Shown here: positions 9,089-56,164 of the stretch, piece after piece
Numbering within the stretch: position 1 is the first letter of the stretch
How the letters are laid out: each line of letters starts with the position of its first letter
Position numbers and translations under genes: made by a program
Source: a virus
Taxonomy: Duplodnaviria > Caudoviricetes
Length of the DNA: 60,313 nt
Reading direction: 5' to 3' (one strand)
Virus record (IMG/VR): IMGVR_UViG_3300028571_001115
Span: 1-60,313 of that record
Notes under the pieces: generated by a model
Database searches by the model: none
Seen by the model: only the letters and a program-made list of their open reading frames with translations
Told to the model about the DNA's origin: nothing

Positions 9089-9232
9089 CTCAGTCCCTCA
9101 TTTTTCGGGGACGTCTGAGCCGGATCGTGCGGGTCCATTCTCGATGTTGGTATTCGTTTGGATCGTCAACCATTCAGTGCAAAATTTATTGTCCACTGAT
9201 GGTTGACATCAGCTGAATGACTATGTATCGAA

Positions 9233-11665: not shown

Positions 11666-11678
11666 ACACCTTTATCGA

Positions 11679-11948
11679 TTACTGTGGAGGCATGCCGCCA
11701 GGAGGCGGGCCACCTGGGCCTTCTATCATTGGATCCTGGGGCTGCTCATCGCCACCAAGGGCTGCCGCCAGCTCCTGGATCATCTGGGTCACCTGGGCGA
11801 GTGCCTCGGCGATAGCGGCGAGGATCTCCATGGGATCGCCGCCAGGGCCTTCAGGCATGCCGCCAGGGGCTGGACCGCCTGGGGGCATGCCTCCACCTGG
11901 AGGCATTGGTCCGCCTGGAGCGGCTGCAAACGGGCTCTGAGGAGGCAT
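11679..11948 (-). CDS. Small Gly/Pro-rich protein
   Basis: Starts 1 nt after portal stop; central helix flanked by GP repeats. Confidence 0.55.
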   Translation of the reverse strand: MPPQSPFAAAPGGPMPPGGGMPPGGPAPGGMPEGPGGDPMEILAAIAEALAQVTQMIQELAAALGGDEQPQDPMIEGPGGPPPGGMPPQ

Positions 11949-11949: not shown

Positions 11950-14676
11950 TTACTGTCCTTGTGATGGATCGTTGCGGAGGTGGTTGAGTTTGTTGCCGCG
12001 CGGCTGCTGCGATTGCTGCTGCTTGATCTGCATGTCCTGCTGAGCCGACTGGGCCTTCATTTGCCCCTCCTGCTCCATCTGCTGACCCTCCATGGCCATC
12101 TTCTGCTGGCCCATGGCTTGTTCCTGCTCCATTGACTGTGCGTCCATGTGCATCTGCTGTTCGGACTGCACGCGCTGCATTTGCATGTCGGTCTGCATCT
12201 GCTGCTCTTGCATCTGAGCCTGACGCTGCTGGGTCTGCATCTCCAGCTCGCTCTTCTGCTGGTCGATCTGCGCCTTCATCTGCGCCTGCATATGAGCGGT
12301 CTCGGCTTTGAGCCGCGCCATCTGCTGCTCGGCCTGTAGCTTGGCCTGCTCGCGCTGCAGCTCGAACTGGTGCTTCTCCTGCTGCATCTGCATGCCCTGC
12401 TGATGCTTCTCGCGCTCGATCTGGAGCTTTTCGCGTTCGATCTGGATCTCGTTCTGGCCCTTGCCGTCTTTGCCCTCCTCGGCTGGAACCGGTAGCCCAG
12501 CCACCTGAGCGAGCGCAGGAGCCATCTGGGCGACAGCCTCCGCGATCTGCTCTGGCGGCGTGTTGCCAGACATCTGACCGCTCTGTGGGTCCATATAACC
12601 AGCAGGCGCGCCAAGGCCACGGGCGTGGGTCGCCCAGGCGTAGGCCATATGTTGGCCGATAATCGCAATCGCTGCCGGGCCGACTTGCTTCTGGACCTCG
12701 GGATTTCCCCCATACTGCGGGTTAGACATAAATGCCCACAGCACCTGAAGGTGCGCGACATGGTTCTGCTCCGGCGTGACCATCACTGGCTTGCCCAGCA
12801 TGATCGCCTGGACCTCGCCGATCGGGTCGTAGCTGATTGGTTTGGGGTCTGCTGGCAGCAGCTCGTCGATGTCGGGTACGCGCATCGCCTGCAGCATCCG
12901 CCGGGCAGCGATCTTGATCGGCACCACGCCGGTCTCGACCGCCATCTGGAACACGCCCTGCGCCTGCGCCATGCGCTGCTGCGTCGAAAAGATGTTTGGG
13001 TCCGACACCGGAATAACCGACACGCCGGGCGCGAAGTCGTCGACGTAGACCGTGCGCTGCTGGCCCGACACCTCGTAGGGGTAGCCGCCCTCCGGCACGT
13101 ACTTTTGGCACAGCTCGTAGCGCAGGCGCAGCTCGCGCCCGAGCGACGCGTGAGCCATCCGGTGGATAGTCGACATCACCTTCCCACCCTGCTCGATCAT
13201 CTGCTGGGTTGTGCCGACCGGCGCGTTTTTGGGGCTCTCGTCGCCGGTCATCAACTCAGTGGTCGCCGTAAACCGCTGCGCGGCTCCCTCAAGGTGGGCG
13301 ACCATCTGCATCAGGACCGGAGAGGGCTCCTTGACCGGCAGCGGGAAGAAGGCGTTTTTGAGGTCCTCGGTGGTCGCGTCGACCGGGATCCACTGGCCCG
13401 GCGTCGAGATAAGCCGCTGCCCCTTGATGTTGGCGTTTTTGCTGATGAAGCCGCCCGAGAGCGACGCGGACGCCGCGCTGTCGAGGAGGACGCGGATCGC
13501 GCCGGTCGCTGCCGTCTGAAGTCCGCCGATGCAGTGAAACAGGCCGAGGCCATAGAAGCCCGGCCCGGGGATGTAATCATATTTTTCGATGTAGACCTTG
13601 CGGTTGCACATCGGGTCGTCTTCGTCCCAGGCGCGATAGATCGCCAACACCTTGCGGCTGGCGCGCTCGATCGACACGACGTAACTGCGTTCCAAGCCGG
13701 TCGGCTCGCCGTTCTCGTCGACGTGGTCGTCGCCCTCCAGGTCGATGTCGATGCAGGTCTCAAAGATCTCGTAGCGGTTCGACTTGTCGTCGCCATCGGG
13801 TGCGGCGTCGCTCATCTCGTCGTTCGCCGTCATGATCTCGTCGCGCGTCTCGTCGGTCGGCAGATCGATGTCAGCCTTGCGATAGTGCTTGACAATCTGC
13901 AGGCGGGTCAGCTCGTTTTTCGACTTGAACATGCGGTGCGTGAAGCGCTGCGCAGTCTTGAGGCTGGTGGCCTCGGCAGGCACGATCAGATCATTGGCCG
14001 ACACGTAGATGCCAACGTTGCGCTGCAGGATCGGGTCGCGGTAGGTCTTGCGGAAGCTGTTGCCGTGGAACGGGACATGCCAGAGCAGACGCGAGGTCTC
14101 CTGGATGTAGGCCTCGTCCTCGATCGTCATCTCGTAGTTCATGTACTCGGCGACGCGCTCGGCCCGGGCGTTCTTGTCCTCCGTCTGCGCCCCCATCACC
14201 TTGCCCTTGCATGGGCCTTCAGGCGGGAACAGCTCGCCCATGGCACGCGCCCAGAACTGGGTGACAGCCTCGATCAGCAGGGGGTGGACGGCATTGGACG
14301 CGCCAGGGAAGGGGCCGTCGTCGATGTCGCTTTCGATTAACCCCATCATCTCAAGGCCGCGCTCAAATCGCTCACGCCACGGACGCCGCTCCTCGATGTC
14401 GTCCTCGACCATCATGGCGATGTCCTGGCCGAGTTTGTCGAGGTGGTCCTCGTCGAGCACAAGGGCGAGGTTATCGCCGTGGGTTTCGGGGGTGTCCATC
14501 AGGCTCGGCGCATTGAAGCCAGCCTCGTCGACGTTGCCGTCGGCGTCCATCTCAAACGTCGAGTGCAGTGGGTTCTCGCCCTCGCCCAGGTCGACCATGA
14601 TGTCGTTGTCAGGCATCGGCATGCCGAGATCGGCTGCCGTATAGGATTGCTGACGTGTTTGGCCGAGGCGCGGCAT
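11950..14676 (-). CDS. Portal protein (P22-like, with Q/M-rich C-terminal barrel)
   Basis: PFPGAS-AVHPLL-EAVTQF, RAERVAEYMNY, PGPGFYGLGL, LPVKEPS, PVGTT, PVSDPN. Confidence 0.9.
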   Translation of the reverse strand: MPRLGQTRQQSYTAADLGMPMPDNDIMVDLGEGENPLHSTFEMDADGNVDEAGFNAPSLMDTPETHGDNLALVLDEDHLDKLGQDIAMMVEDDIEERRPWRERFERGLEMMGLIESDIDDGPFPGASNAVHPLLIEAVTQFWARAMGELFPPEGPCKGKVMGAQTEDKNARAERVAEYMNYEMTIEDEAYIQETSRLLWHVPFHGNSFRKTYRDPILQRNVGIYVSANDLIVPAEATSLKTAQRFTHRMFKSKNELTRLQIVKHYRKADIDLPTDETRDEIMTANDEMSDAAPDGDDKSNRYEIFETCIDIDLEGDDHVDENGEPTGLERSYVVSIERASRKVLAIYRAWDEDDPMCNRKVYIEKYDYIPGPGFYGLGLFHCIGGLQTAATGAIRVLLDSAASASLSGGFISKNANIKGQRLISTPGQWIPVDATTEDLKNAFFPLPVKEPSPVLMQMVAHLEGAAQRFTATTELMTGDESPKNAPVGTTQQMIEQGGKVMSTIHRMAHASLGRELRLRYELCQKYVPEGGYPYEVSGQQRTVYVDDFAPGVSVIPVSDPNIFSTQQRMAQAQGVFQMAVETGVVPIKIAARRMLQAMRVPDIDELLPADPKPISYDPIGEVQAIMLGKPVMVTPEQNHVAHLQVLWAFMSNPQYGGNPEVQKQVGPAAIAIIGQHMAYAWATHARGLGAPAGYMDPQSGQMSGNTPPEQIAEAVAQMAPALAQVAGLPVPAEEGKDGKGQNEIQIEREKLQIEREKHQQGMQMQQEKHQFELQREQAKLQAEQQMARLKAETAHMQAQMKAQIDQQKSELEMQTQQRQAQMQEQQMQTDMQMQRVQSEQQMHMDAQSMEQEQAMGQQKMAMEGQQMEQEGQMKAQSAQQDMQIKQQQSQQPRGNKLNHLRNDPSQGQ

Positions 14677-14783
14677 TGCTGTCCCTCAAACTGGGTTTGG
14701 AAGCAGCAGCAGCAACGAGTTGTCAGTCCGGGAGCCGCCTTTCGGCGGACAAGGTCAATGGATGGTGGTATTCGTTTTGGGCG

Positions 14784-15952: not shown

Positions 15953-16288
15953 TCAAGCACTGGTGTCGCCCTCGCGGTAGTGTTCGGTAGGCTGATCGGG
16001 GATCTGGTTGATCAGGGGTGGCCAGCGGCGCGAGCGGTTCAGCGTCTGCTTGTTGACCAACGCCTGGGCGACCGCCAGCGGGGTGTGACCGGCGCGCAGT
16101 GCGCCGTCGATGCCGAGCGTGATGATGTCGACCCACTGGCCGAGCGCGGCATCTGGCGTGTGCGCCTGCCGCACCTCGTCGCTTTCGCGCTCGATGTGGC
16201 GCAGCAGGCCCTCGGTGCGGTCGCCCTCGCCGAACGTTCTCTTGGACCACGCCCAGTGGTCATGGATGAAGGTGACGAGGTTGATCAC
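15953..16288 (-). CDS. DUF550 / dATP-dGTP pyrophosphohydrolase-like protein
   Basis: WSKRTFG...GLLRHIERE-DEV...WVDIITLGIDGA-RAG...R-WP. Confidence 0.75.
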   Translation of the reverse strand: MINLVTFIHDHWAWSKRTFGEGDRTEGLLRHIERESDEVRQAHTPDAALGQWVDIITLGIDGALRAGHTPLAVAQALVNKQTLNRSRRWPPLINQIPDQPTEHYREGDTSA

Positions 16289-16587
16289 TGGCTGTCCTCT
16301 GGCTGGTTGATGCGGTCCTCTGGCGGGTTGATGCGGGTCGGCTGGAACACGGCGCGGTTTGCCCACATAAAAGCTTCCTGGATCTTGGTGCGCGCCAGGG
16401 CCAGCATGCGCGGGTCGATTGGAAGATTAGCTTGCCCGGGGACGTGCGTGCCGTTCAGGCTGCCCATCTTATCGAGCTGGCGCAGCACGCGCTCCTCCAG
16501 ATCCTTGTTCTCGTTCACCAGGGCGACCTTATCGGTCGACTGGGCAGTGTAGCCCTGCACCGGCAGCGGCTTAAGGTCTTCTGTCAT
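16285..16587 (-). CDS. Acb2/Tad1-like cyclic-nucleotide sponge (anti-defence)
   Basis: GY...VALVN..K..EE and DPR-LA-ART-IQ-AFM-ANRAVFQP match the Acb2 pattern; 100 aa. Confidence 0.7.
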   Translation of the reverse strand: MTEDLKPLPVQGYTAQSTDKVALVNENKDLEERVLRQLDKMGSLNGTHVPGQANLPIDPRMLALARTKIQEAFMWANRAVFQPTRINPPEDRINQPEDSQ

Positions 16588-18310: not shown

Positions 18311-18356
18311 GTCAGCTCATAGCTGACTATCTGACGTGTGTCAACCATTAGTTGAC
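18311..18356 (-). promoter_or_regulatory. Sigma70 promoter TTGACA-17-TATGAG covered by two 17-bp operators
   Basis: Operators at 18340-18356 (over -35) and 18311-18327 (over -10). Confidence 0.75.
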
Positions 18357-19299: not shown

Positions 19300-21312
19300 T
19301 CAGAAGTCGTCGCCGTCGTCGTCATCGACGTCCGAGGCATTGGTGACCGAGCGCCCATAAAGCCTGGGCACATGGCGCGTTTTCTTGTTGGTGCTGCGCC
19401 CGTACAAGCCACGGCCCTCGGTGCGGCGGTCAAATTCGCCGCGCTCAAGGTCTTCTTTTTCGTGCTTGTCCAGCTTGTCGCTGGGCCTATCGAGCAGGTT
19501 GACGTTGCGTGACCAGATCAGGGAGCTGGTGACCGTGTCGGTCCAGTCATCGTGCTTGCCGTTCGGGAATGCGGCGCATTCTTTGATCACGCCAGCCGTC
19601 ATTGGGCCGGGCAGGTACCAGACAGAGCCGGAGGCGAGCACCACGGACGCGGCGTGAGCGCGCGGCACCTTGCCGTTGGCCCCAGGCGGGAACGGCGGCA
19701 GCCACTCGACGATGGCCGGGTAGTGGAGACCCTGCTCATCGACGTACCGCGACCGCTCGCGCCGCAGCTCCTGCAGCAGCTGGATGCCGGACGCTTTCTT
19801 CTCGACGATGACCCATTCAGGTCGAAAGAACTTGACGTGTTGCTTGACGATGTCGAACAGGTCGACCGCCTTCACCTTGCCACGCCACGCCCCAAGCATG
19901 ATCACCTGCTGCTGAATCGGGTCGGTCTTATCGTCGCTGTCCTTGAGGCGGATCTGGCGCTTGCCCGGTTTCTCCTTGGTGAAGCTGACCCAGGCCGTCA
20001 TAGCTGAATAGTCGTTGTCTTGACCATCCTCAAACGCCGTATCGTAGACCAGCCAGCACTGCGCCCAATGCTCTGGGGGCTCGACGTCGCCGGGTCGGTC
20101 CTTCTGCTGTTGCGTTGGATCCGGCTTGCCGTGCGGCCAGCACTTCCAATATTTGCGCAGGAGGATGATACCCTCGCTGGCCGCTGGCTTCTGCTGGTAC
20201 AAGCTGTTCCAGGCACGCTCGCCCATGGCGCGGGCCAGCTCGACATAGCGGTCAGTGAACCACTGCGGCCACATCCGCTCGCCCAGGCGGCGATTGAGCG
20301 GGTCGTCGAGTGCGTCGCAGATCAGCGGGCAGCAGAACACCAACCACCAGCGACCGTCAGTGCCCCTCCAGAGCCCGCTCTGACCCTCCCACTTTTCGCC
20401 AAGTAGGTGACCGGCGGGATCGTCTTCGTGCCACCGCGTCTGGATCAGCAGCACCTTGCCGCCCGGCTTGAGACGGGTGAACAGGTCGTCCTTCATCGCC
20501 GCGTTGGTCTTCTCGCGGATGATCTCGCTCTCGGCCTCCTCACGGCCCGCGATCGGATCGTCGATGATCAGCAGGTCAGCACGGTTACCGGTGACGCCGC
20601 CCAGGATACCGACGGCGCGGTAGGTCGAGCCGTTCATCAGCGACCATGCGTCGACCGCTTGGTTATCGCCCGTCAACTGAGTATCCCATTGCGCGGCATA
20701 CTTGTCTGACCGGCAGATCGAACGCACCCGGCGACCGAACCGCTTGGCCAGCTCGGACCCATAGCTGGTGCCAATCACGTCGGTGCCAGGGAAGCGCCCC
20801 ATGACGTAGGTCGGCGCGATCACGCTGGCGTAAGTCGACTTGGCTGAGCCCGGGCTGAAGAAGAACATGATGCCGTCGGGGACGATGCCCTGGTGGCCAT
20901 TGGTGAGCGGCCCCTCGACCGGCATCTCCTCCATCATCCCCTGGACGGCAGACAGGATCATTGCGCCGTGCTCGGGGATGTCGAGTTGTTTGGGATAGAA
21001 CTCCCCCTCGTCGACCTCGTCCTTCTCAAAGTCGTATTCGGGGATCTCGACCTTGACCCCGCTGTTGATCTTCAGCATGTCGATCTGGGCCTTGCGGGCC
21101 AGCATCTTCTGCCGGTCATTCAAGTTCATCTTGCTGGGCGCGCCGGGCACCTCGATGTGCGCCGCGTACTCGACGATGTCGCCCTTGCGCTTGTCCTTGT
21201 GCATCACCTCCAGCGCCTGGATCAGGTCGCGACGCTCCATAGGCGTTAGCTGGCTCAGATCGGCGTTTTCGATGTCGTCGAGGTCCAGCATCTCAGTCGA
21301 TCTGCTCGTCAC
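19300..21312 (-). CDS. terL: Terminase large subunit (probable ATG at 21291)
   Basis: Walker A SPGSAKST, Walker B LLIIDDP, IQTRWHEDD, nuclease YDTA...EKKASG...FPNGKHDDWTD. Confidence 0.92.
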   Translation of the reverse strand: MTSRSTEMLDLDDIENADLSQLTPMERRDLIQALEVMHKDKRKGDIVEYAAHIEVPGAPSKMNLNDRQKMLARKAQIDMLKINSGVKVEIPEYDFEKDEVDEGEFYPKQLDIPEHGAMILSAVQGMMEEMPVEGPLTNGHQGIVPDGIMFFFSPGSAKSTYASVIAPTYVMGRFPGTDVIGTSYGSELAKRFGRRVRSICRSDKYAAQWDTQLTGDNQAVDAWSLMNGSTYRAVGILGGVTGNRADLLIIDDPIAGREEAESEIIREKTNAAMKDDLFTRLKPGGKVLLIQTRWHEDDPAGHLLGEKWEGQSGLWRGTDGRWWLVFCCPLICDALDDPLNRRLGERMWPQWFTDRYVELARAMGERAWNSLYQQKPAASEGIILLRKYWKCWPHGKPDPTQQQKDRPGDVEPPEHWAQCWLVYDTAFEDGQDNDYSAMTAWVSFTKEKPGKRQIRLKDSDDKTDPIQQQVIMLGAWRGKVKAVDLFDIVKQHVKFFRPEWVIVEKKASGIQLLQELRRERSRYVDEQGLHYPAIVEWLPPFPPGANGKVPRAHAASVVLASGSVWYLPGPMTAGVIKECAAFPNGKHDDWTDTVTSSLIWSRNVNLLDRPSDKLDKHEKEDLERGEFDRRTEGRGLYGRSTNKKTRHVPRLYGRSVTNASDVDDDDGDDF

Positions 21313-22799
21313 GCGTGAATGGAAGCTGTGTCGGCATGGGGACGCCAGACATGTCTAGGTGAGCCCGTCCATTGATGACGTCGTCGAGCAGCTCCTCCGG
21401 CGACTTGTTCATCGCCAGGGCATTCTCGCGTAGGCGCTGCTCAAACAACTCGTTGAACGTGTGTGGGGTCGTCTTGACGCCGGTCTTGTCGGCGTTGCCG
21501 TACCACGCAGCCGCCTGAGCCTGCCCTGGGGCGAGCCCGAACTTGTCTGCTGCCTTGTGATAGGGCTTTGCCGCGAGGCCGTAGGCAGCGTCTGTAGGGG
21601 CCGACATCCACATCGTTGGGCGCGTCAACAGCTCCTTCATCGACGTCTCGCCATTGGCCAGTAGGTCGCGTGGGCTGTAGTTCTCGTACCCACCGTGGTC
21701 GGCTTGGTAGCGGATCGAGTTGGTCAGGTAGCGCGGATCTTTCTGGGCCATAGACAGCGTCCGCATGGCGTGTGCGTCGACGACGGCCTTAGATTGATCG
21801 CCTGCCAACGATCGCCCGAAGTGCTCGGTCTTCTGGCTGTCTTTGACGTTGTAGCCCCCCTCCTGGCCGAACTTCTTGCGGCTCAGGATGGCGCGTGTGT
21901 CGGCAGCAACGCCTGAGAAGCCTGCCTCCTTGCCGGATCGGGGTATCTCCTTGCCCTGAGCTAGCATCTTCATGATCTTGGTGGCCTCAGACACGTTATT
22001 CATGACTGTGTTCTGCGGGCTAGTCGTGCCGACAGCCTGCATGAAGCGAAGGTAGGCGTCGTCCGAGCTGCCTGGGCCTCGATAGAGGTCACCGAACCGC
22101 TCACGGAGTGGTTCGGTGTTGTACCAGTTCATCGAGGCGTTGCGGTTCTCGCCCGACAGCCCACGCTCGACCGCGCGATTGACCTCGTTCTGCACCTTCC
22201 GGCTCGATGCCAGCTCGCCGATCTTTTTCCGTGTCGCTGTCTGGTTTCACCTTCACGCGCGACTTGAAGTAGTCGACCTCGGGCAGATTAAGCAGGTTGT
22301 CCGGCGCGACGTCTCGGTGGTGCCCGTAGTCGAAGATCTCGCCGTCCGCCCTCTTGATGGCTGGGGCTGCGACCGACTTGGGTGCCGGGATCGGGCTGTG
22401 GTTACCCATCGGCAGGTCCCAGGTGTCCCCCAGGTCGAATGTGGGCATGTCGCGCCGGGCTGCAGACATGGCGACCGAGCCAGCGGGTGCCTTGATGAAC
22501 GGACTGGCCCCACCAACCAGCTGCGAGATCGCCCCGGAAGCCCGCTCACCGTTTTCGCGCGTTGGGTTGGCATAATACTCGTCAGTGAACCGCCCGGGCT
22601 CCGTCAGGATGCCGGGGATTGCGGGCACGAACTCGCTGTTGTCGCCTCTGCCGTCTGGATTCGCGTATCTGCCGATCGGCAGGACATTCAGCGGGAACGG
22701 TGGCGTCTCGTAAATTTTACCCTCACGACCGCGCGCGCTCTTGGTCCTCTGGTTGCCCTCCAGAAGGCGATTGAAGTCGTCGTAATACGGATCGCTCAT
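21293..22799 (-). pseudogene. Polyvalent-protein-type gene with HhH-glycosylase-like C-terminal domain, split by +1 frameshift at A5 run near 22225
   Basis: ORFs 22101-22799 and 21293-22195 join if one A is removed (…TEK IGELASSRKVQNEV); WY...TSP...N...K...F...VDAH-MR...QAAAW motif. Confidence 0.6.
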
Positions 22800-22893
22800 C
22801 GCCGTCTCTGTCAGCTATGGGTTGACAAGCGCACGCAGCTGTGCAAGCTTGACGCTACTGACATTCGTTTGCTAATCAACCCGAGAGATCGAT

Positions 22894-23214
22894 GTGCACC
22901 CTGCTGCGCGCACCATACTGCTTTACACGTTCGTCCCCTATCGCCACACGCTGGAGCTTCTCAGGGTGGACAACGAAGGCAGACAGACGGTCATCAAGAC
23001 CTGGGAAAAGTGCGACATCCGCCCCCTCAACATCATCGAAAACCAGCTGCGCATAAGCGGCATAGTCACTGAGCCAGCTGTGCATGTCAGGCAGCCTGTG
23101 TCAGTCCTCCCTCCACGCAGCGAACGGGTTGACGAAGGCATTCTCAAGAGCCCCAACGTAGGGATCTCCGTGTGGGCGCAGCTTGGGCGCGCCTTCAAAC
23201 TGGGCAGCAGGTGA
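22894..23214 (+). CDS. Hypothetical protein, convergent/overlapping
   Basis: Follows operator at 22810; overlaps 3' end of 23101 gene antisense. Confidence 0.3.
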   Translation: MHPAARTILLYTFVPYRHTLELLRVDNEGRQTVIKTWEKCDIRPLNIIENQLRISGIVTEPAVHVRQPVSVLPPRSERVDEGILKSPNVGISVWAQLGRAFKLGSR

Positions 23215-24261
23215 CATCCCGATCATTTTTTGGTCTGCGAAGTGCGTCTCAGCGCCTGAGGCCTTGGCGTTGGCCTCTGCGTGTGGCCCGCTGTTGACCC
23301 AACTGTTCTGTCCGCGCGTCTCGGCTGTCATGGTTGGTCTGGCCTCGGGCGAATACATCGCCGAATGGGCACCCCATGCACGCTCCTCGCCGGGCGCGCG
23401 AAAGAACGCATTGCCATGGCCGAAGTGCCCATAGGCGTCGTGCACGGCGCGGAACAGGTCGTTGTAGGTTGCTGGCTGATCGCCGAATGACCGGCCTGAT
23501 TGCTGCAGCAAGGGGTGATCGGCGAACGCGGCATCGGTGCCATAACCACCCTCGGTCGGGAAGATCTGGAGCCGCTTATTCTCAGCCAGATCCTTGTACC
23601 CCATCGCCGGGTTCTTGGCGTACGGGTCGATAATGCCGCCGTCTGGCCCCTGCTTCATGAAGTCGAACTCATAGCCCCGGCCCTTGAGCGCATCAAACTG
23701 TCCGAGCGTCTCGTCCGCGAGCGCCTTGTAAGACGCTATGGCTGCTGGGTCATACATCGGCGCAACGTCATACTCATTGGCGATCTGCTTGGCGCGGTCG
23801 CGGTCTAGCGGCTCGAACCGCTCCGGCACCATCGCCTTCTGGCCCCGGCTCTTCGCATAGTCGTCCATTGCATCGATAATGCCGGGGATCGGCTTGGCCT
23901 GGATCGTCTCGCCCGACGGCAGCGTGAACTCCTTGGGCATTCCTGGCACTCGCTCGTAGGGTGCGTGTCCAAGGATCGCCCGCTCCTTGGACAAGTGCGA
24001 GAATGGCGCGCCCAGGCCGCCCAGCATGCCCAGGCCGCCCTCGATAGCTGCCGTCTTGAAGTCGCCGCGCTCAGCTGCCCTCTGCCCGCGATTGGCCCCC
24101 ATCGCCGCGCCAACGGGCGGGATCATCTCAGCTAGGTTCCCCAGCTTGCGGCCCCACTCAGCCGTGCTGCGCGTCTCGTCGCCCCCGCCAAGCCCTTTCG
24201 AGATCAGCTCGGCGAACTTCTCACTCCAGCTTGGATCGTAGTTGCGCAGCTCGGCAGCCAT
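23101..24261 (-). CDS. Polyvalent-protein-type effector with HDxxGH domain
   Basis: Gly/Ala hydrophobic leader then NDLFRAVHDAYGH...GEERAW...ETRGQNSWVN...FADQK. Confidence 0.65.
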   Translation of the reverse strand: MAAELRNYDPSWSEKFAELISKGLGGGDETRSTAEWGRKLGNLAEMIPPVGAAMGANRGQRAAERGDFKTAAIEGGLGMLGGLGAPFSHLSKERAILGHAPYERVPGMPKEFTLPSGETIQAKPIPGIIDAMDDYAKSRGQKAMVPERFEPLDRDRAKQIANEYDVAPMYDPAAIASYKALADETLGQFDALKGRGYEFDFMKQGPDGGIIDPYAKNPAMGYKDLAENKRLQIFPTEGGYGTDAAFADHPLLQQSGRSFGDQPATYNDLFRAVHDAYGHFGHGNAFFRAPGEERAWGAHSAMYSPEARPTMTAETRGQNSWVNSGPHAEANAKASGAETHFADQKMIGMSPAAQFEGAPKLRPHGDPYVGALENAFVNPFAAWRED

Positions 24262-24273
24262 CTCAAACCTTTT

Positions 24274-24319
24274 GTCAGATAGCAGTTGACAGCGTAGTGA
24301 ATGTCCACTATGAGTTGAC
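24274..24319 (+). promoter_or_regulatory. Sigma70 promoter TTGACA-17-TATGAG with two 17-bp operators
   Basis: Operators at 24274-24290 and 24303-24319, 29 bp apart as at 18311/18340. Confidence 0.75.
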
Positions 24320-24361
24320 ATACACGCTGATCAATCATGCTGATATTCGAAGGAGACTGCA

Positions 24362-24571
24362 ATGCCGAAAGCGACCAGGCCTCGCGTTCTCTATCTGGAC
24401 CAATACGGCAACAAGTTTTTCGCCCGCACCGTCAAGGAGCTTCACCAGCAGATCGGCGGCAAGATCTCCAAAATGTATGTCGACAAGACAGACGGCACCA
24501 CCAAGCACGTCGGCTACGTCATCGGCCAACGTTGGTTGACAGCCTACGCCCCAATCGAACGCCCAGCCTAA
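24362..24571 (+). CDS. Small early hypothetical protein
   Basis: AAGGAG SD; first gene after promoter. Confidence 0.7.
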   Translation: MPKATRPRVLYLDQYGNKFFARTVKELHQQIGGKISKMYVDKTDGTTKHVGYVIGQRWLTAYAPIERPA

Positions 24572-24581
24572 GGAGCCTGAC

Positions 24582-24881
24582 ATGAGCAACACTAAAACTA
24601 TCGAGATCACCGACTACACCCTAGGCAACCGCTTCCAGACCGCGATCGACGCCCAAGACGCCTGCAACCTGCGTGCCCTGGCCCGCCAATTCGTGTTCGT
24701 CGTCGACGCAGCCATGGAAGAGCTGAGGGACACCAAGGGCACCTGGGATGACCCGGCTGTCGTCCTGTTTGTCAACAAGCTGGAGAGCCTGTGCCGGTCA
24801 GATGACCGCTTCAGCGCCGCGTACAGCGCCTGCATCGAGCGGGCCGAGAAGGTCGCTCAAGACAAATGGGAGGCCGCGTGA
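24582..24881 (+). CDS. Small early hypothetical protein
   Basis: TAAGGAG SD. Confidence 0.7.
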   Translation: MSNTKTIEITDYTLGNRFQTAIDAQDACNLRALARQFVFVVDAAMEELRDTKGTWDDPAVVLFVNKLESLCRSDDRFSAAYSACIERAEKVAQDKWEAA

Positions 24882-25138
24882 TGACTTTCCACAGCAAGAC
24901 CAAACCGAACGTCGTTTGGAACAAGGAGCGCGGCCTACTCCATATCGAGGTGCCGGGCGGGATCGTGAACATCAACGTCGGGCTCTCACTCAGCACCGGC
25001 AACAAGGTCACGCGCGTCGAGATCCTGGCCGATGGCGACCGCTACGCAGGTGAAACCCCTTGGTGGATCGAGGGCGAGAAGTGCGTCGTTGCAGGCGCAT
25101 GGCGCATCATTCAAGAGCTGGAGAACACAGATGCTTAA
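24881..25138 (+). CDS. Small early hypothetical protein
   Basis: GGAGG SD, TGATG coupling. Confidence 0.6.
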   Translation: MTFHSKTKPNVVWNKERGLLHIEVPGGIVNINVGLSLSTGNKVTRVEILADGDRYAGETPWWIEGEKCVVAGAWRIIQELENTDA

Positions 25139-25808
25139 AGAACGATACGCTCTGCTGGAGCCCTTCAAGGGCGTCAACGAGCTGGTCAAGGCCTGGGCAC
25201 GTGACGTCGGCGAGGATGTCGGCAGCCACGACGCTAACGGGGTCTACAACGGCTACGACTTTGAGGTCGAGGACGTCGAGAACCAGCACCGATCGGGCTT
25301 CATCCCGTTCACCAACGGCGGTGTCGAGGTCGTGCTCTGCGCCACGCTTAGCGCCTGCGATGGCCACGGCAGCGCGCCAACCATAATCCAGCCTTATCTC
25401 GACAGCGCCTACAAAGATGCTGTTGCGGACTGGGATCGACAGCACCATGAGGCGACAGTCGAGCAGATTTACGCCAGCGACCGCGACCACCCGCTGCGCG
25501 AGGACTGGCACGAGTTTCAGTCCGTGTGGCTCCAGGAGGGCGGCACGTTCTTCTTCAAGATCCGTGCGCTGTACTACCACCCTGCCAACAGCTCGAATGA
25601 GAGCGGCGAGGAGGAGGTATTTTTCATGGTCGGCATCAACACCGACTTTGGGTATGGCCGCGACACCATCCCCTGGCTGCGCTGCTATGGCACTAATCCT
25701 CAGCAGACCGAATGGGTCTGGGAGGCGACCGTTAAGGTCGCCGACCTCGACGAAGACCTGATTAAGCAACTGACCGAAGCTGCAATCTTCAACCTGAACA
25801 ACGCATAG
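25131..25808 (+). CDS. Acidic hypothetical protein
   Basis: GGAG SD before MLKERY; good codon usage. Confidence 0.65.
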   Translation: MLKERYALLEPFKGVNELVKAWARDVGEDVGSHDANGVYNGYDFEVEDVENQHRSGFIPFTNGGVEVVLCATLSACDGHGSAPTIIQPYLDSAYKDAVADWDRQHHEATVEQIYASDRDHPLREDWHEFQSVWLQEGGTFFFKIRALYYHPANSSNESGEEEVFFMVGINTDFGYGRDTIPWLRCYGTNPQQTEWVWEATVKVADLDEDLIKQLTEAAIFNLNNA

Positions 25809-25815
25809 GTGACAC

Positions 25816-26118
25816 ATGGCGAGACGATGGAAAAGCATCCAAGACGTGATCGCGGCCAATAGGCAGATCGGGCACCACTGGTTTGACGGCAGCACGATGC
25901 GCTTTTTCGAAAGCACTATCGAGACCGGCATCCTCAGGGGCTGCTACTTCATCACCAGCGAGACCGGACCAAGCCGCCAGACGCTCTACTCGATCCGTGT
26001 GGTGCGCAACAATGGCGCGATTGGAACGATCGGCAACTTCAACAGCCACGAAACCGTCGACGACGCAAAGGAAGCCTTGCGCCAACACTTACTTGAGTTA
26101 GAGTCAACTGAGGGTTGA
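25816..26118 (+). CDS. Conserved phage hypothetical protein
   Basis: AANRQIGHHWFD-STMRFF-S...YFITSE motif. Confidence 0.7.
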   Translation: MARRWKSIQDVIAANRQIGHHWFDGSTMRFFESTIETGILRGCYFITSETGPSRQTLYSIRVVRNNGAIGTIGNFNSHETVDDAKEALRQHLLELESTEG

Positions 26119-26138
26119 CATTATTGAAGGGGGTGACT

Positions 26139-26339
26139 ATGACGATCAGGTTTTTAGACGTGCTGGAACGCATCGAGGCCCAGACCGGCCTGTCTGGCCA
26201 CGAGGTGGCGAAGGTGATCGATGTCCGGCCAAGTAGTTATCATGAGCTGAAGTCGGGGCGGATGACACCATCGGCACTCACCATTCAGAAAACGAAAGAG
26301 TTCACGGATCGACTGCTGGCGGCGAGGAGGGGTAAATGA
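26139..26339 (+). CDS. XRE-family HTH protein
   Basis: GLSGHEVAKVIDVRPSSYHELKSG...PS; follows perfect operator at 26103. Confidence 0.65.
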   Translation: MTIRFLDVLERIEAQTGLSGHEVAKVIDVRPSSYHELKSGRMTPSALTIQKTKEFTDRLLAARRGK

Positions 26340-26578
26340 GTAAGCCACACACCATCACCAAGGATGACGTGAAGAAGTGGCGCGCCAGCTTCCAACACAT
26401 CGCCTCCTCACACGGCTGCGACGGTCGGCCCAGTAAGCGGATCGAAGGCAGCGCGCGGGGCGAGTACAAGATCACCATCGACGGGCGGATAGTGTGCCAG
26501 ACATAGGACATGGATGAGGCATTGGACTTCTACAACGGGGACGGCCCGAGAAAATACGAGAGTGACGATGACGACTGA
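26336..26578 (+). pseudogene. Small ORF with in-frame TAG at 26504
   Basis: MSKPHT...VCQT*DMDEALDFYNG...; GAGGAG SD, coupled to next gene. Confidence 0.55.
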
Positions 26579-26975
26579 ACAAAGCGGCTACTGGCTGATC
26601 GATATCTATGCGGGCCGGATCGCGTGGCAGGGTCACTGGCTGACCTTGCCTGACGACTGGGTCGCCCTGGCATGGCAGTGGCAGCCGAATGGCTATCGCG
26701 TCTACGTGCGGCGCACACAACTCAACGACCCTAGCTTTAGTCTCGTGAGCGCTCTGACCGGAAACTCGCTCGATAGCGACCTGTCCGTCGGCAATCGTTA
26801 TGTGCGGACCATCCCCGGTGTCGTCATCGGTCCTGAATTGACCGTCGAGGAGCGCCGGGCGGCGCGCGTGGTGCGTTTTGGCCGCGTAGGCCGAGCCCAG
26901 GCCTTGCGCGTACCAGAGTGTCCTGCCAGGATCTTCGACGACTTGGATAACCTCAAGGAGCTGGCTGAGCTATGA
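26568..26975 (+). CDS. Hypothetical protein
   Basis: Continuation of plus-strand operon. Confidence 0.55.
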   Translation: MTTEQSGYWLIDIYAGRIAWQGHWLTLPDDWVALAWQWQPNGYRVYVRRTQLNDPSFSLVSALTGNSLDSDLSVGNRYVRTIPGVVIGPELTVEERRAARVVRFGRVGRAQALRVPECPARIFDDLDNLKELAEL

Positions 26976-27175
26976 CCTGTGAAGTCCCGCCCATCATCAC
27001 GCCCTGCTGGTGCGGCTCTGGCTGGCCGATGAAGCACAGCGTGTACGAGGTGCCCTTCGACCCCAAAAGCCCGCAGATTTCCAAAATTGAGGTCTGCAAC
27101 GCATGTCACGATACGGTGCGGGATGCGCTGGTTAGCGTGCGTGAGCTGATCAGTCTTTCTCGAACGGCGGGATGA
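26972..27175 (+). CDS. Small Cys-containing hypothetical protein
   Basis: ATGA overlap; CWC and CxxC. Confidence 0.5.
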   Translation: MTCEVPPIITPCWCGSGWPMKHSVYEVPFDPKSPQISKIEVCNACHDTVRDALVSVRELISLSRTAG

Positions 27176-28505
27176 CCTTGTAGGGCCGCATATCCCACGC
27201 GAAACCATCTTGTGGATAGTGATGCCGCAAGTCGTAGGGCTCGATGTGGCTGAACTGACGCGGCGTGTCGATGCCGATCTTGGGGTTGCGCAACATCATG
27301 TCGCGCAGCTCCTGCTCACCTCGCGCAATCACCTCACCGTGGTCGTTAAAGTAGCGCTCCAGGTTTCCATGTCGATAGATATCGTCATACCGCGAGTTGA
27401 GGTCAGTGTGTTTGCCATATGACCAATCTTTCGGCATTCCGCTAGGGTGCAGCTCACCAACATCACGACCGCCTGCATCCCTCTTAAAGCGGGTCATCGC
27501 ATCGCTGGCCTCTGGCGAGTTGAATGAAAATTTGTCTTTTGGGCCATCCCGCATGAATGTACCGAACGGCAGTCCGCTTTTTGCTGCGGCTCCATGCCCA
27601 GCAACTTCATGCGTGATCAGCGACTCCAGCTGGGGGATATTGGCGGCGTGCGCGCTTAGTGACGTGATCGGCCTGTTGGCCTCATGAATGCCGATGCTCG
27701 CGTTGACTGTGGTTGTGTCTGATCCGCGACCCAGGTTGCGGTCGGTCTTGATTGCCCCAGGCGCGACTGGAATGCGGGACAGGGATGGGTACGCATCAAA
27801 AAGCTCGGGATGGTCAATGACGTCACCGGACTGCAATCGATGGATTGTTTGCGTTATGTTGGGCTTATCGGTCTCATGCAGTGCCTCAGGCTTAAGTTTG
27901 AGCTGCGTGTCGTCCAGCGCCGTGTACCACTCTGGCGTTTCTCGCCCATAGGCGTTCTTGGACCAGCCGAACTGCTTGAACGCGTCGTCGTGTGACATGC
28001 CGTTCGCCACGGCCTCCTTGGCCTTCGCTAGGCTCGCCTCGCTGCCCCAGTCAGGATGCGGCGCGCCGCGCCTGGAAGCGCCCTTCAGGCTCTCCGTGAG
28101 GTTCTGGACGCCCATCAACCCGATCAGGGCATTAACGCCGTCACCGGCAGCCCTGGCGAGGTTGCGCGACACACCGTCGGCCACCACGCCCGGCGTCATG
28201 TCCATGGCGATACCCGCGCCGACCATGGGATTGATCCCGCCGCTCGGGTTCCACTCGCTGGGCCTTGCATCCTCCATCACGCGGTTGATGCGGGTGCCGA
28301 CGTCGATGAGACCCCCACCGAAGATCGAGGGCAGCGCCGTGACCTCGCGACCGCGCTCGTCACGACCCCACGGCATAAGCGGGTTGCGCGTCCCCGGCTC
28401 GATCGGCGTCGTGGCCCAGTCGTACAGGCTATCGAAGACGCTCGACTTGTGCTCGGGCGTGGCATAGCTTTTCGTGAATGGGCTGTCCTCGTCGTCCATG
28501 GTCAC
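27150..28505 (-). CDS. LPD23-like + zincin-like metallopeptidase polyvalent-type protein
   Basis: KQFGW...WY-ALDD...IDHPELFDAYP...THEVAGH...Y...GEVIAR. Confidence 0.65.
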   Translation of the reverse strand: MTMDDEDSPFTKSYATPEHKSSVFDSLYDWATTPIEPGTRNPLMPWGRDERGREVTALPSIFGGGLIDVGTRINRVMEDARPSEWNPSGGINPMVGAGIAMDMTPGVVADGVSRNLARAAGDGVNALIGLMGVQNLTESLKGASRRGAPHPDWGSEASLAKAKEAVANGMSHDDAFKQFGWSKNAYGRETPEWYTALDDTQLKLKPEALHETDKPNITQTIHRLQSGDVIDHPELFDAYPSLSRIPVAPGAIKTDRNLGRGSDTTTVNASIGIHEANRPITSLSAHAANIPQLESLITHEVAGHGAAAKSGLPFGTFMRDGPKDKFSFNSPEASDAMTRFKRDAGGRDVGELHPSGMPKDWSYGKHTDLNSRYDDIYRHGNLERYFNDHGEVIARGEQELRDMMLRNPKIGIDTPRQFSHIEPYDLRHHYPQDGFAWDMRPYKVIPPFEKD

Positions 28506-29488
28506 TCCAGCAGCTTCTTGAAGCGATTGTTCGGCCCCAGGGCCTCAAGTTGGCCGCCTTCTCGCCGACCAAACAGCTCGTTGTCCGGCATGTCTGCAGA
28601 TTTCCATGGCGGCACAACCGCTCGCTCCCATGACGGCATGTTGAGGCGTGCCGCCTGGATCCTGGCCAGCCACTCGTTGTTCATGCGTGAATAGGTGGCA
28701 AACGGCAGGTTGCTGGACTCTTCTCCGGCTTGCTCCTGCTCCTGCGCGAAGTGCCCCAGCTCGTGCCCTACGACATTACGCTGATTGGCTCGAACCACGC
28801 CGGGATTGCCCCCCCATGGCGGCGTGTAATCTCCACCCCTTGCAGACTCCCCGCTATATCGGCTCGACGTGTCTGTGCTGAACAGGGTCTGGTCAAAGGC
28901 CTCTGGATATGCTGCACGAAGATCATCGTGCCTCACGAAGTCCTGTAGGTGCCCAATTGTCTTGGGCTCCGGCAATGGCGAGCTGTATGCATCATCGCCG
29001 GGCTCACGGGGCGGGATTGGCGTGCTCCAGGCCTTGTGCAGCTTGGCCGCGTCCTTAGGGAAGCGCCGCTCGAACTCGGTCAGGCCACCAGTCTTCTTGC
29101 GATCGATCCCAGCCTTGGTGAACAGCTCACGCTCCAGCGCATCGTTCTCCCGCTGGCGGCGCTTGATGGCGGTTGGCTCCCGGGCCAAAGCGTCGCGCCG
29201 GTCACGCTCGGCTTGGCGTCCAGAGCTGTCGAACTCCATCTTGTCGTCGGGGATCTCATACCAGAACTGCTGCCTCGGGTCGGCGAAGAAGCCGGTGTCA
29301 GCCCATGTCTTCTCGCGCGGCACGCCCACGAAGTGCTGATCCTGCGCCTGGGCCAGCTTCTCGCGGTCGACCGTCTGTGACTTAGGCCCGGCAAACACCA
29401 CTGGCTCGGCAACGGATGGCGTCTCGGCGAGGCGATAGACGCCGTCGTCGATCTCGTCGCGCATGAACGGTGGCCGAGGTGGCTTCAT
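28502..29488 (-). CDS. LPD23-like + zincin (HExxH) polyvalent-type protein
   Basis: FAGPKS...W-DTGF...YEIPDD...HDDL-AAYP...HELGH-AQ...E-LAR...PPW. Confidence 0.7.
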   Translation of the reverse strand: MKPPRPPFMRDEIDDGVYRLAETPSVAEPVVFAGPKSQTVDREKLAQAQDQHFVGVPREKTWADTGFFADPRQQFWYEIPDDKMEFDSSGRQAERDRRDALAREPTAIKRRQRENDALERELFTKAGIDRKKTGGLTEFERRFPKDAAKLHKAWSTPIPPREPGDDAYSSPLPEPKTIGHLQDFVRHDDLRAAYPEAFDQTLFSTDTSSRYSGESARGGDYTPPWGGNPGVVRANQRNVVGHELGHFAQEQEQAGEESSNLPFATYSRMNNEWLARIQAARLNMPSWERAVVPPWKSADMPDNELFGRREGGQLEALGPNNRFKKLLE

Positions 29489-30087: not shown

Positions 30088-30606
30088 TCACCTGATCCTC
30101 CCCTGTTTCGGCTTCGGTAGCCCATAGGCCTGGCGCGGCTCGATCTTGATCTTGCCGGTCAGTTCCTGAATGCGCTGCTTGGCCTCCTCGACGCTGATGT
30201 TGATGTTAACGTTCGTGGCACCGGCCACGGGCGTTTCCGGCTTGTCCTCATAACCCAGGCGCAGGCGGCGCTGTTTGGCCATGAAGCGCCACGTTGATGG
30301 GTCGTGCTTGGCGTGCGTGAAGCCCAGCTTGCGGAACGTCGCCCGGCCCATCCGGCGACCGTCCTGCCATGCTTCTCGCGCCTCCGGGTGCGCCATCAGG
30401 AAGTTGGTGAACGTCGGCAGGCTGCAACCCAGAAGCGCGGCGGCCTCGGTCTGGGTGTGGTCATGGGCGGCGATGTTGGTGATCTGGTCCAGCGTGCGCT
30501 CATTCAGCTCCAGCAGCTTGCTGCGGGTCTTGTAGCGAAAGGCTGGCTTGTCCTCCTTCTTGGGAGTGGCATCAGAAGGCATCTGGTGGCTCATTTTGAC
30601 GTTCAT
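30088..30606 (-). CDS. Putative terminase small subunit
   Basis: N-terminal HTH (TQTEAAALLGCS-PT), REAW-DGR--G-A--R helix, F-AK--LG, C-terminal strand. Confidence 0.55.
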   Translation of the reverse strand: MNVKMSHQMPSDATPKKEDKPAFRYKTRSKLLELNERTLDQITNIAAHDHTQTEAAALLGCSLPTFTNFLMAHPEAREAWQDGRRMGRATFRKLGFTHAKHDPSTWRFMAKQRRLRLGYEDKPETPVAGATNVNINISVEEAKQRIQELTGKIKIEPRQAYGLPKPKQGRIR

Positions 30607-36258: not shown

Positions 36259-37512
36259 TTATCGGCAAGCGTACACGCCCGTCACATAGGCCAGAGTGGC
36301 ATGTGCAATCTGCCGCTCGTCGGTCAGCCGGATCTGCTCTAGGTCGATCTGGGCCAGGGCCTCAACGGCATCCAGGTAGGCGCGGGCGTCACGCTTGCCT
36401 GCCTTGTAGGCTGCCTCGGTTGCGGTCAGCACCTGGGCAGCGATCGCCCGGCGCTTCCCCAGCAGGGCAACCTGACCGGTCCCAAGCTGGATGGTTGTCC
36501 ATGCAATAGATGCTTGACCGGCAACCTCGTCCTCGCTCGCGCTGGAGCGGTATGTCGCAGCAGACGCTGCCGCCCGGCGGCTCTCCAGATCGGCCTGCGG
36601 CTCGGCACCCCATGGCAGTGGCACCCGAGCCGTCACCTTGCCATAAGCCTCCTCAGCCTCGTACGTTCTGGCATATTGTACGCTATGCTTGACGCCCACC
36701 TGAAGTGCAACCTCCGGCAGCCTGGGCCTGGAGCGCTGCGCCAGCTGGATCGCTGCCGTATCTTTAGCCAGCCGTGCCTGCCTCAGCTGCGGTGCATGGG
36801 CCAAGACGGCAGCCCTGCACTCCTCCAGGCTGGCACAGGCAGGGGGCACTGGCTGGCTGATGACCTTACGGGCAGCGCTTACAGCTCCACCCCACAAAGC
36901 CAAGCGGCGATGCTCGGCCAAGGCCGCCCGCTGCTGCGTGTCGCCCTCTGCCAGCAGCCAGCGAGACAGCCGGTCCCGCACATCCAGCAGGTCGACCTCC
37001 GGCACGTCCTTGGCCTTCACCCGCTTGCTGACATCTGCCATGACCCGCTTCAGCTGGCGCTGAGTCTCTCCTGTAACCTTGAGCCGGTCATTTGTTGACT
37101 GAGCCTCGATCGCAATGGCGCGGGTTTCACGTGAAATTGATCCGCAGACATCATCCAGCGCAGCTGATCGTTGTGCAATCGTTGCGTCGGCAACCCTAAG
37201 TTCGTCGATCAGCAACTGGTCCTTGATGATGGGCTGCGTCAACCTGACCTCGGCACTCCATGGCCCTGGTGCACGGTCACGGATGGAAGGATCAGGCACC
37301 CCATTGATGGTGTCGCGTGTCCAGGCGGGTCCGATCTCGCCGGTCGCCTCCACGGTTGGCATCCAGTTCGCGATCACCCGGCGGCGTTGCGCGACCGCCT
37401 GAGCGAGGTCAGCCTTGGCTGCCATCACCCGGGGGTGATCGGAAACCTCGGGAGCCCAGCAGGGGGTTACTGTAATGCTATAACATATCATAGCGAGCAG
37501 CAGGCGTTTCAT
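36259..37512 (-). CDS. TolC-family outer membrane channel
   Basis: Signal peptide; HPRVMAAKA...WMPTV...LTQPI, repeated in second half (RLPEV...RVPL), YKAGKR---YLDA. Confidence 0.8.
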   Translation of the reverse strand: MKRLLLAMICYSITVTPCWAPEVSDHPRVMAAKADLAQAVAQRRRVIANWMPTVEATGEIGPAWTRDTINGVPDPSIRDRAPGPWSAEVRLTQPIIKDQLLIDELRVADATIAQRSAALDDVCGSISRETRAIAIEAQSTNDRLKVTGETQRQLKRVMADVSKRVKAKDVPEVDLLDVRDRLSRWLLAEGDTQQRAALAEHRRLALWGGAVSAARKVISQPVPPACASLEECRAAVLAHAPQLRQARLAKDTAAIQLAQRSRPRLPEVALQVGVKHSVQYARTYEAEEAYGKVTARVPLPWGAEPQADLESRRAAASAATYRSSASEDEVAGQASIAWTTIQLGTGQVALLGKRRAIAAQVLTATEAAYKAGKRDARAYLDAVEALAQIDLEQIRLTDERQIAHATLAYVTGVYACR

Positions 37513-37519
37513 GGATCCC

Positions 37520-39154: not shown

Positions 39155-39255
39155 GAGGCAGGCTGATCAGCCCGCGTTTTCCCTGGTCTCTCGGTTGTGG
39201 TATTCGCGGGTGGCGTCAAGTCGCCATCAAATCCCTTTTCAGTCTGGCGCTGATG

Positions 39256-56160: not shown

Positions 56161-56164
56161 AAGT

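Follow-up and report, generated by a model that had tools for sequence, protein, structure and literature searches.

Solo relatives of polyvalent-protein domains between the terminase genes of a podophage-type virus, and a widespread N-terminal module that heads one of them

Why should a temperate phage encode a run of apparent effector proteins in the middle of its packaging genes, and do these proteins share an N-terminal leader? This question is raised by a viral DNA of 60,313 bases, hereafter the window, which is a whole IMG/VR virus record (IMGVR_UViG_3300028571_001115) rated complete. Family scans describe a temperate podophage-type virus with two integrases, a CI-like repressor, a GcrA-like protein and an SU10-type adaptor. 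On the minus strand of the window lies an array of open reading frames (ORFs) that we call, in reading order, E, D, C, B and A. The original prediction, made from the sequence alone, described four genes here with an HhH-glycosylase-like domain, an HDxxGH domain and two LPD23+zincin domains, and read them as a modular system in which related leaders precede variable effectors. The genes and most of the domain calls stood, with two amendments: B and A appear from their relatives to be one gene, and the metal motif of D is non-canonical. This observation was partly confirmed, and the interpretation placed on it is partly supported, in that a leader family with varied cargo exists and includes C, although it is not a leader common to the array. 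What we report is a well-supported annotation together with one hypothesis.

We place the array between two terminase genes because the ORF upstream of it matches a small-terminase family and the gene downstream encodes the large terminase (Table 1). The two terminase genes share the strand of the array and stand 8.8 kb apart; the space between them is taken up by the array and by an opposite-strand island that parts D from C. The stop codon of E overlaps the start of D by 4 nucleotides (nt), the end of A overlaps the start of the large-terminase gene, and the third-position guanine-plus-cytosine content (GC) is 0.72-0.79 in all array ORFs. Polyvalent proteins (Iyer et al. 2017) are encoded with portal-terminase packaging genes, as is the array, and carry several unrelated effector domains in one polypeptide; each window protein is a single effector unit. 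By homology, the array proteins are solo relatives of polyvalent domains rather than polyvalent proteins. In other lake runs, contigs agree with the window as far as positions 23445, 26453, 27232, 27732 and 29263, within C, D and E and at the island, and continue in unlike sequence. This suggests that variants occur together in which segments have been exchanged, among them one with another N-terminal half of D.

The premise that such domains occur fused within giant phage polyvalent proteins was borne out by giants that lie beside the portal gene in metagenomic loci and in GenBank phages; for the C domain, the polyvalent proteins next to portal genes measure 1,100-2,986 aa. Among GenBank proteins, the C domain lies within a 2,772-aa 'large polyvalent protein' of Pag-Yong1, a protein of 847 aa, and OANV1 gp16 (2,986 aa), whose gene belongs to the structural module, follows the portal gene at a distance of three genes and directly precedes the tailspike. 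The A domain forms part of the 1,203-aa gp38 of Roseobacter phage CRP-212, encoded after the portal, and an A-like domain also occurs in a post-portal protein of MJing1. In a neighbourhood sample of 80 C-domain loci from IMG/VR, the ORF hosting the C domain was at least 950 aa long in 23 loci and at most 658 aa in 57. The giants also carry ART-PolyVal, LPD23, PBECR5, Peptidase_M15, Hydrolase_2 and DUF7178 (Pfam). One ORF holds an LPD23-zincin-like region together with C in 10 of the 80 loci and an A-like domain together with C in three; a solo A-like gene adjoins a solo C-like gene in four, and P0065, P0068 and P0106 are further fusions. A portal homologue was present in 12 of the 80 loci, within 300 nt of the giant gene in nine of them, and an SU10-adaptor homologue in 39, mostly 0.7-0.8 kb downstream of solo C genes; many of these loci are short contigs, and absent neighbours therefore mean little. 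D-like genes stand among SU10-adaptor genes in L007 and L008. The idea of a strictly co-linear fission of a giant gene had to be softened, as other domain orders occur in L041, L058, P0065 and the four adjacent solo pairs.

Both of the upstream genes carry LPD23-type regions, one canonical and one divergent. E matches Pfam LPD23 (PF18838) at residues 32-87 with 44.9 bits (1e-11; cut-off 27), followed by HELGH. Neither E nor D has a significant peptidase family match: Peptidase_M78 reached E at only 0.034, and DUF6782 appeared in relatives at 5e-4 to 9e-4, below its cut-off. D matches no Pfam family at E<=0.1, and a word-index search returned D alone. Its layout comprises about 155 N-terminal residues, an LPD23-like region (residues ~155-205), a 'DHPELFDAYP' block and HEVAGH in the place of HExxH. 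By BLAST, the LPD23 region and the 'DHPELFDAYP' block align with a 438-aa metagenome protein (L007; 2e-10) and with a 1,844-aa viral protein (L084; 1e-9) that has Pfam LPD23 at residues 269-321; D also aligned with L014, with a 1,094-aa Pfam-LPD23 protein and with several IMG/VR giants, and the Atlas cluster nearest to D is 97% LPD23 (score 0.92). In an alignment of 12 regions, HExxH is found in ten relatives and in E, HExxN in one relative, and HEVAGH, one residue longer, in D. All 12 regions keep a downstream 'E..AR' block, where the 'GE..AR' column reads GE in D and NE in E. Because its region and block align with LPD23-bearing proteins and 'E..AR' is kept, we regard D as an LPD23-zincin relative with, judging from these alignments, a non-canonical metal site. 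A zincin-type metallopeptidase combines HExxH with a third ligand further downstream. Where two LPD23+zincin domains had been proposed, E has LPD23 with a zincin-like HELGH region and D is LPD23-like, without a Pfam hit and without the canonical HExxH.

In C, the HDxxGH domain could be verified: an alignment of 47 sequences shows no variation at H274, D275, G278 and H279, and the 48 invariant columns, many of them polar, fall nearly all in the enzyme domain. This conservation pattern makes it likely that the HD..GH domain is an enzyme. Its relatives comprise 742 proteins of 212-676 aa and occupy at least 588 places in IMG/VR. The full-length model of C has a predicted local distance difference test (pLDDT) score of 87.1 and a predicted template modelling (pTM) score of 0.73. 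Foldseek of this model against the PDB gave a best E of 0.3, VIA-align against 48,161 chains gave a best Z of 4.9, only on leader residues 4-84, a PDB sequence search returned nothing relevant, and the Atlas held no usable match. A search of BFVD gave 20 matches at E<=1e-3, including proteins with polyvalent-associated, ART-PolyVal-like and head-morphogenesis names.

For A, the glycosylase-like call held at the level of the modelled fold. A matches Pfam DUF7178 (PF23802) at residues 57-165 with 36.7 bits (cut-off 27), and its model has a pLDDT of 89.0 and a pTM of 0.84. VIA-align of the model gave a Z of 10.7 to 3n0u_A, a Thermotoga 8-oxoguanine glycosylase (root-mean-square deviation 3.8, 179 residues). 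Ranks 1-22 were all HhH-GPD glycosylases or queuine-salvage enzymes; 19 chains had Z>=5, and unrelated rows had Z<=3.7. The queuine-salvage enzymes matched at Z 6.1-6.3 and PaMx11 gp46, a phage DNA-hypermodification enzyme, at Z 4.1. Foldseek ranked the same 3n0u_A protein first, but with an E of 0.22. The two-lobe fold is common to A and the HhH-GPD DNA glycosylases (Tm1821/Ogg, MagIII, EndoIII, MutY and OGG1), from which A differs in having no sequence-level match: neither A nor its profile had a relevant match in PDB sequence searches, including to any solved glycosylase, and A did not match Pfam HhH-GPD. In an alignment of 12 sequences, six columns are invariant, among them K122 and D140, so placed that the invariant Asp lies 18 residues after the Lys, inside a 'VDxHxxR'-like stretch; we take this spacing and pattern to resemble those of the catalytic Lys120 and Asp138 of EndoIII. 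In the superfamily, a catalytic Asp follows the HhH, with a Lys as well in the bifunctional enzymes. The model indicates that A is likely to be an enzyme with the HhH-GPD glycosylase fold.

B and A are, by comparison with their relatives, two frames of one gene, because those relatives encode both as a single protein of about 500 aa. Of the four nearest relatives of A, three are single proteins of 494, 513 and 500 aa, and the fourth has 387 aa. Residues 1-179 of B are 59% identical to the N terminus of the 500-aa P0126, whose C terminus matches A; B also has partial matches to P0123-P0125, and its 'IKR.dGEIFDY' region matches all four relatives. A homologue in Microcystis phage MJing1 has the same layout (504 aa, A-like part 227-478). 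For B itself, Pfam, PHROG and NCBIfam gave no family. Frame B has a high third-position GC up to a run of five A's and a low one in its last ~40 codons, while in frame A it is high right after the run. Contigs of runs X9 (21912-26482), X12 (21995-22831) and X13 (21967-22611), from three studies of which none is flagged as a possible source, cross this A5 site with no inserted or missing letter. Because three independent assemblies show the same break, we consider it real in the DNA and not an assembly slip; the three contigs, with an identity of 99% or more to the window, may sample one population, and rare variants are hidden in contigs.

One possible explanation for this arrangement is that B and A are still read as one protein by recoding at A5, through a +1 ribosomal slip on AAA-G or through polymerase slippage, which would give two products. 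We consider this conceivable but somewhat doubtful. The break falls exactly on a lysine-codon A run, is stable across the assemblies and is followed by a coding signal that runs on gap-free in the new frame, and no good start or ribosome-binding site is visible for A before GTG 22195. Polymerase slippage generally needs runs longer than five A's, however, and a ribosomal slip would be expected to have a stalling stop or rare codon; A5 is short for the former and is followed by no such codon for the latter. In addition, the relatives need no recoding, and the near-identical assemblies perhaps represent a single population with one mutation.

The same break could be taken as a sign that the array is a decaying remnant of what was once a giant polyvalent gene, broken up by a frameshift, the insertion of an island and the loss of motifs, and by now mostly without function. 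The +1 break against a single ORF of 494-513 aa in three of the four close relatives, the HEVAGH of D, the opposite-strand island between D and C and the divergence points of the other variants' contigs all fit this idea. We nevertheless find it quite improbable. The array ORFs are long and keep the high third-position GC given above, and E keeps its HExxH. C keeps 48 of 48 and A six of six invariant columns, as they must because the columns were defined on alignments that include them. The solo form of C, of ~390-450 aa, is moreover the commonest, as seen in 57 of the 80 loci and in the size range of the 742 proteins, so that the solo state is best regarded as normal and not as debris.

A central element of the original prediction was that the leaders within the array are related, and this was not borne out. 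The likeness between B and D (LPIGR...PAIPGI against MPWGR...TALPSI) was rejected: the quoted motifs align, but BLAST gave an E of 0.87, and hhalign of four B-type and six D-type N-termini gave a probability of 0.1%, equal to reversed controls. A broad profile of the C leader scored 0.3% against D-type and 0.2% against B-type N-termini by hhalign, like reversed controls, and among the window proteins it matches C only. E has no N-terminal extension. Because E has none and the N-termini of D and B are not detectably related to the C leader, no single address system spans the array. C had also been likened to an 810-aa protein of the window. BLAST between them gave an E of 0.21, at a place other than the one quoted; the N terminus of the 810-aa protein (residues 57-124) matched C-type leaders by phmmer at E 5e-4 to 0.05, in one register, within a 227-sequence set, and hhalign with the C leader gave 12.9%, compared with 5.2% for the reversed control. 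Three leader hidden Markov models (HMMs), a core one of 48 columns and two longer ones, found neither the 810-aa protein nor D or B. This likeness is weak, and a Gly/Ala-rich composition is a sufficient explanation of it.

By contrast with the array-wide leader, the N terminus of C proved, on profile evidence, to be a real module that is widespread and heads many different enzymes. AlphaFold predicts helices at residues 12-24, 31-44, 50-64 and 68-82, with a pLDDT of 80-90 over the blocks of residues 11-70 and below 50 at residues 82-91. The module has no Pfam, PHROG or NCBIfam family, and literature searches by domain names returned nothing relevant to it. It is kept in 61 of 108 C-family N-termini and is also present in CRP-212 gp38, which has an A-like domain and no C domain (2.7e-9; 1.3e-28 with a broader HMM). 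Comparing N-termini by HMM across phages, as a check on C-terminal swapping, had been proposed with the original prediction; for the C leader this was done, and swapping was seen. A profile of nine leaders, from the window and IMG/VR loci, was run against 1.84 billion representatives of 50% identity clusters; its matches number 251 clusters at E<=1e-3, of which 23 reach E<=1e-10. Among the best 150 matches, which have a median length of 420 aa, the module starts within residue 100 in 130 and is followed by at least 150 residues in 110; the C domain follows in four, an LPD23-zincin-like region in 14, an A-like domain in six and none of the three in 126. A Pfam scan for cargo covered 75 of the 107 among these matches that are at least 300 aa long and found LPD23 in 11, ART-PolyVal in nine, PcfJ in five, GNAT in two, and DUF7178, PBECR5 and RelA_SpoT in one each, with no family in 47. 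Matches with the layout of D exist (for example, a 455-aa protein with the leader and then LPD23), yet D itself lacks the leader. A guessed shared junction motif, G-[ILVM]-[FLMY]-G right after the leader, was discarded, being found in only one of 126 proteins. In locus L034, a 651-aa protein without a Pfam family (9982-11937) adjoins a solo C-domain gene and carries the C leader at residues ~92-161 (2.8e-7, broad HMM), so that, as far as the match goes, a single phage would have two cargo proteins behind this leader.

What might these proteins do? We lean slightly towards the reading that they are solo polyvalent-protein modules, encoded in the packaging operon of a temperate podophage whose adaptor is of the SU10 type. 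The proteins would be synthesised late, enter the capsid and pass into the cell along with the DNA, to serve there as early effectors. The set would comprise E, with LPD23 and an intact HExxH metallopeptidase-like region; D, with an E-like layout, an N-terminal extension and an altered metal motif; C, with a four-helix module and the HD..GH enzyme; and B/A, with an N-terminal region of ~190 residues and an HhH-GPD glycosylase-like enzyme broken by the +1 frame change. Once released, they may find their early targets in DNA, in proteins or in the envelope, in line with what has been proposed for the giant fusions, and the N-terminal module of C would bring its enzyme into or out of the particle.

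Several observations weigh against this reading. The argument for virion delivery comes from gene context; we found no proteomic data on these proteins, and the OANV1 paper reports no mass spectrometry. Unlike in most relatives, the array lies away from the portal and adaptor genes, and it is split by the opposite-strand island. Domain order is not fixed: LPD23-zincin precedes C in nine of ten fused ORFs, and A may come before or after C, so that the order in the window is a common one but no rule. Every assembly seen has the frame break in B/A, and D has no canonical HExxH, so part of the effector set may be decaying. E lacks an extension, and no relation to the C leader could be detected in the N-termini of D and B. 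Even for C, only seven of the 80 IMG/VR hosts of its domain carry a C-type leader (E<=1e-3), and most solo C proteins have other extensions.

Some of these observations would also be at home with proteins that act in the infected cell and are never packaged, with A working as a DNA glycosylase-type enzyme on phage or host DNA, E and D as peptidases in assembly or lysis, C as a metabolic or modification enzyme, and the N-terminal modules serving oligomerisation or localisation. The place of the array outside the portal-to-tail module and the bare N terminus of E suit this alternative, as do the occurrence of the fold of A in PaMx11 gp46 and in queuine-salvage enzymes and the annotation of giant homologues as lysins in GenBank, as stated in a passage of PMC9239159. 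We judge it unlikely, though a serious contender, as the same domains are repeatedly fused in post-portal giants and encoded among adaptor genes, and as the C module heads ART-PolyVal, PBECR5 and RelA/SpoT domains, which passages of PMC5512222 treat as delivered effectors.

Building on the delivered-effector reading, we tentatively propose, as a hypothesis that we would sooner doubt than assert, that the four-helix module of C is a widespread capsid or ejection address domain of podophage-type viruses, which loads interchangeable effectors through a putative partner in the particle, and that the window shows the unfused state, in which a repertoire that other phages join into one post-portal giant stays divided among separate genes of the terminase operon. 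Its cargo would then include ADP-ribosyltransferases, RelA/SpoT, GNAT, a PBECR RNase, the LPD23 peptidase, the HhH glycosylase-like enzyme and the HD..GH enzyme, by analogy a phage counterpart of polymorphic toxins. If the module is an address, it would provide a handle with which to find injected phage proteins and to load chosen proteins into the phage heads of laboratory strains, and it would explain by what means giant polyvalent proteins and their solo relatives trade parts. The glycosylase-like DUF7178 domain and the HD..GH domain, with hundreds of relatives, are testable candidates for early take-over of the host or counter-defence.

A late-type motif had been noted upstream of at least two of the genes. 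AAACGAAT lies at 22863-22870, 64 nt before the start of B, and is one of 6 such sites in the window, compared with 0.88 expected. AAACGAATACCA (minus strand) occurs at 14770-14781 before the portal gene and at 9152-9163 before the head-gene block, and the upstream copy of B at 22863 shares only its first 8 bases with it; the positions of AAACGAATACCA-type sites suggest that this may be a real late-promoter motif. CGAATACCA recurs in the gap at 39155-39255. B and C are also preceded by a palindrome (Table 1), for which the window has 53 strand matches at <=2 mismatches, compared with 5.0 expected, and 20 sites at <=1 mismatch. These sites (for example 4706-4723, 5657-5674, 18339-18356, 40154-40171, 55247-55264 and 56164-56181) are nearly all intergenic. 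Often a start codon follows at a distance of only 8-14 nt, and the sites are spread over the early, replication and late regions, some of them before replication genes and the repressor/Cro region. Because it also precedes early genes, the palindrome is not late-specific; it might act throughout the genome as an operator, belong to promoters (TTGACA lies within it) or form an RNA hairpin that covers the ribosome-binding site. Neither E nor D has an upstream motif to itself; the two continue a series of overlapping genes that the small-terminase gene begins. Motifs upstream of two genes are present, with AAACGAAT and the palindrome at B and the palindrome at C, and it is the late specificity of the palindrome that did not hold.

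Metagenome runs from lake water and fresh water contain the stretch, in 18 rows that belong to 15 studies; 8 are possible sources. A DNA search found no close relative of the window among GenBank phages. In further searches for close relatives, in sets from which records near the window may be missing, A found nothing in IMG/VR and D nothing in species genomes, tblastn of E and B against GenBank phages returned nothing, a metagenome scan with D gave only two distant loci, and NCBIfam has no family for any of six window proteins. Elsewhere in the window, the interval 15953-16587 between the terminase and the portal encodes an Acb2/Tad1 hairpin-domain protein (Pfam, 4.4e-20) and a dATP/dGTP pyrophosphohydrolase-like protein (8e-13), which are counter-defence candidates. 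An envelope cluster unusual for a phage lies at 36259-41546 and includes an outer-membrane efflux protein (OEP, 4.7e-29), an HlyD-family membrane-fusion protein and a Gram-negative porin. The two integrase-family genes are at 58739-60244 and 44881-45897, and the 501-aa product has a C-terminal T5orf172/MUG113 domain. In the pair at 54325-54837 and 8069-8356, the first-listed is the GcrA-like regulator, which hints at an alphaproteobacterial host, and a cold-shock-domain protein sits in the head-gene block.

Table 1. Positions of the array, its parts and its landmarks in the window.
Feature	Position	Strand	Basis or remark
SU10-type adaptor	2657-3304		Family scans
Capsid protein	4728-5642		Family scans
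810-aa protein, just after the portal gene, no family	9233-11665	-	Position of giant polyvalent proteins in relatives
Portal	11950-14676		phrog_1216
Large terminase subunit, downstream boundary of the array	19300-21312	-	Pfam Terminase_6N; tblastn to phage terminases
A, 300 aa	21293-22195	-	DUF7178
B, 232 aa	22101-22799	-	N-terminal part of the B/A gene
B/A N-terminal part, ~192 frame-B codons as far as the A5 run	22224-22799	-	Identity to P0126
A5 run, coding frame shifts +1	22224-22228	-	Third-position GC
Palindrome GTCAAC-N5-G-N-TGACA upstream of B	22809-22826	.	9 nt before ATG
C, 386 aa from ATG at 24261	23101-24261	-	Leader and HD..GH enzyme domain
C enzyme domain (likely), residues ~101-386	23101-23961	-	phrog_3170, 5e-17
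C leader, residues 1-100, predicted four helices then disordered linker	23962-24261	-	AlphaFold
Palindrome GTCAAC-N5-G-N-TGACA, two copies upstream of C	24273-24290, 24302-24319	.	11 and 40 nt before ATG 24261
Opposite-strand island, ~8 small genes (DUF7447, a helix-turn-helix protein, others without family)	24362-27175	+	ORFs, third-position GC, Pfam, PHROGs
D, 451 aa (or 449 aa, from an ATG two codons further in)	27150-28505	-	LPD23-like
E, 329 aa	28502-29491	-	LPD23 and HELGH
Candidate small terminase subunit, 172 aa, upstream boundary of the array	30088-30606	-	phrog_309, 1.8e-6

The closest known system is that of the polyvalent proteins (Iyer, Burroughs, Anand, de Souza and Aravind 2017, PMC5512222), with which, as far as the relevant passages of that article go, the array and its relatives have in common the portal-terminase context and the domain repertoire of LPD23, metallopeptidase and, in the relatives, ART-PolyVal, PBECR5, GNAT and RelA/SpoT. 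According to the same passages, a number of polyvalent domains are also encoded on their own close to phage structural genes, and the giants arose by the assembly of such solo forms; the packaging of Alt in T4 is mentioned there as well. They also state that polyvalent proteins do not follow a plan of N-terminal address plus C-terminal toxin; the C leader family, in contrast to the polyvalent proteins described there, resembles that plan. The word 'glycosylase' is absent from the main text of PMC5512222, and the C leader or the HD..GH domain may be among the LPD1-40 of Iyer et al. 2017.

MuF-fused effectors, which are named in PMC5512222, offer a second comparison: they have a head-associated N-terminal part and interchangeable C-terminal enzymes and are encoded beside portal and terminase genes, like the C module. 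They differ from it in that the C module is a predicted four-helix unit of ~100 residues without a family, and the window proteins scanned had no MuF (Phage_Mu_F) Pfam match. MuF polymorphic toxins were reportedly treated by Jamet et al. in 2017. The third comparison is with the capsid-targeting sequence of T4, an N-terminal address of ~10 residues on IPI-III and Alt that is cut by the prohead protease, an enzyme for which no gene was identified in the window. What the C module would share with it is the role of an N-terminal address by which unrelated proteins reach the head and are then injected; the short T4 tag is cut off, whereas the C module is a predicted folded domain.

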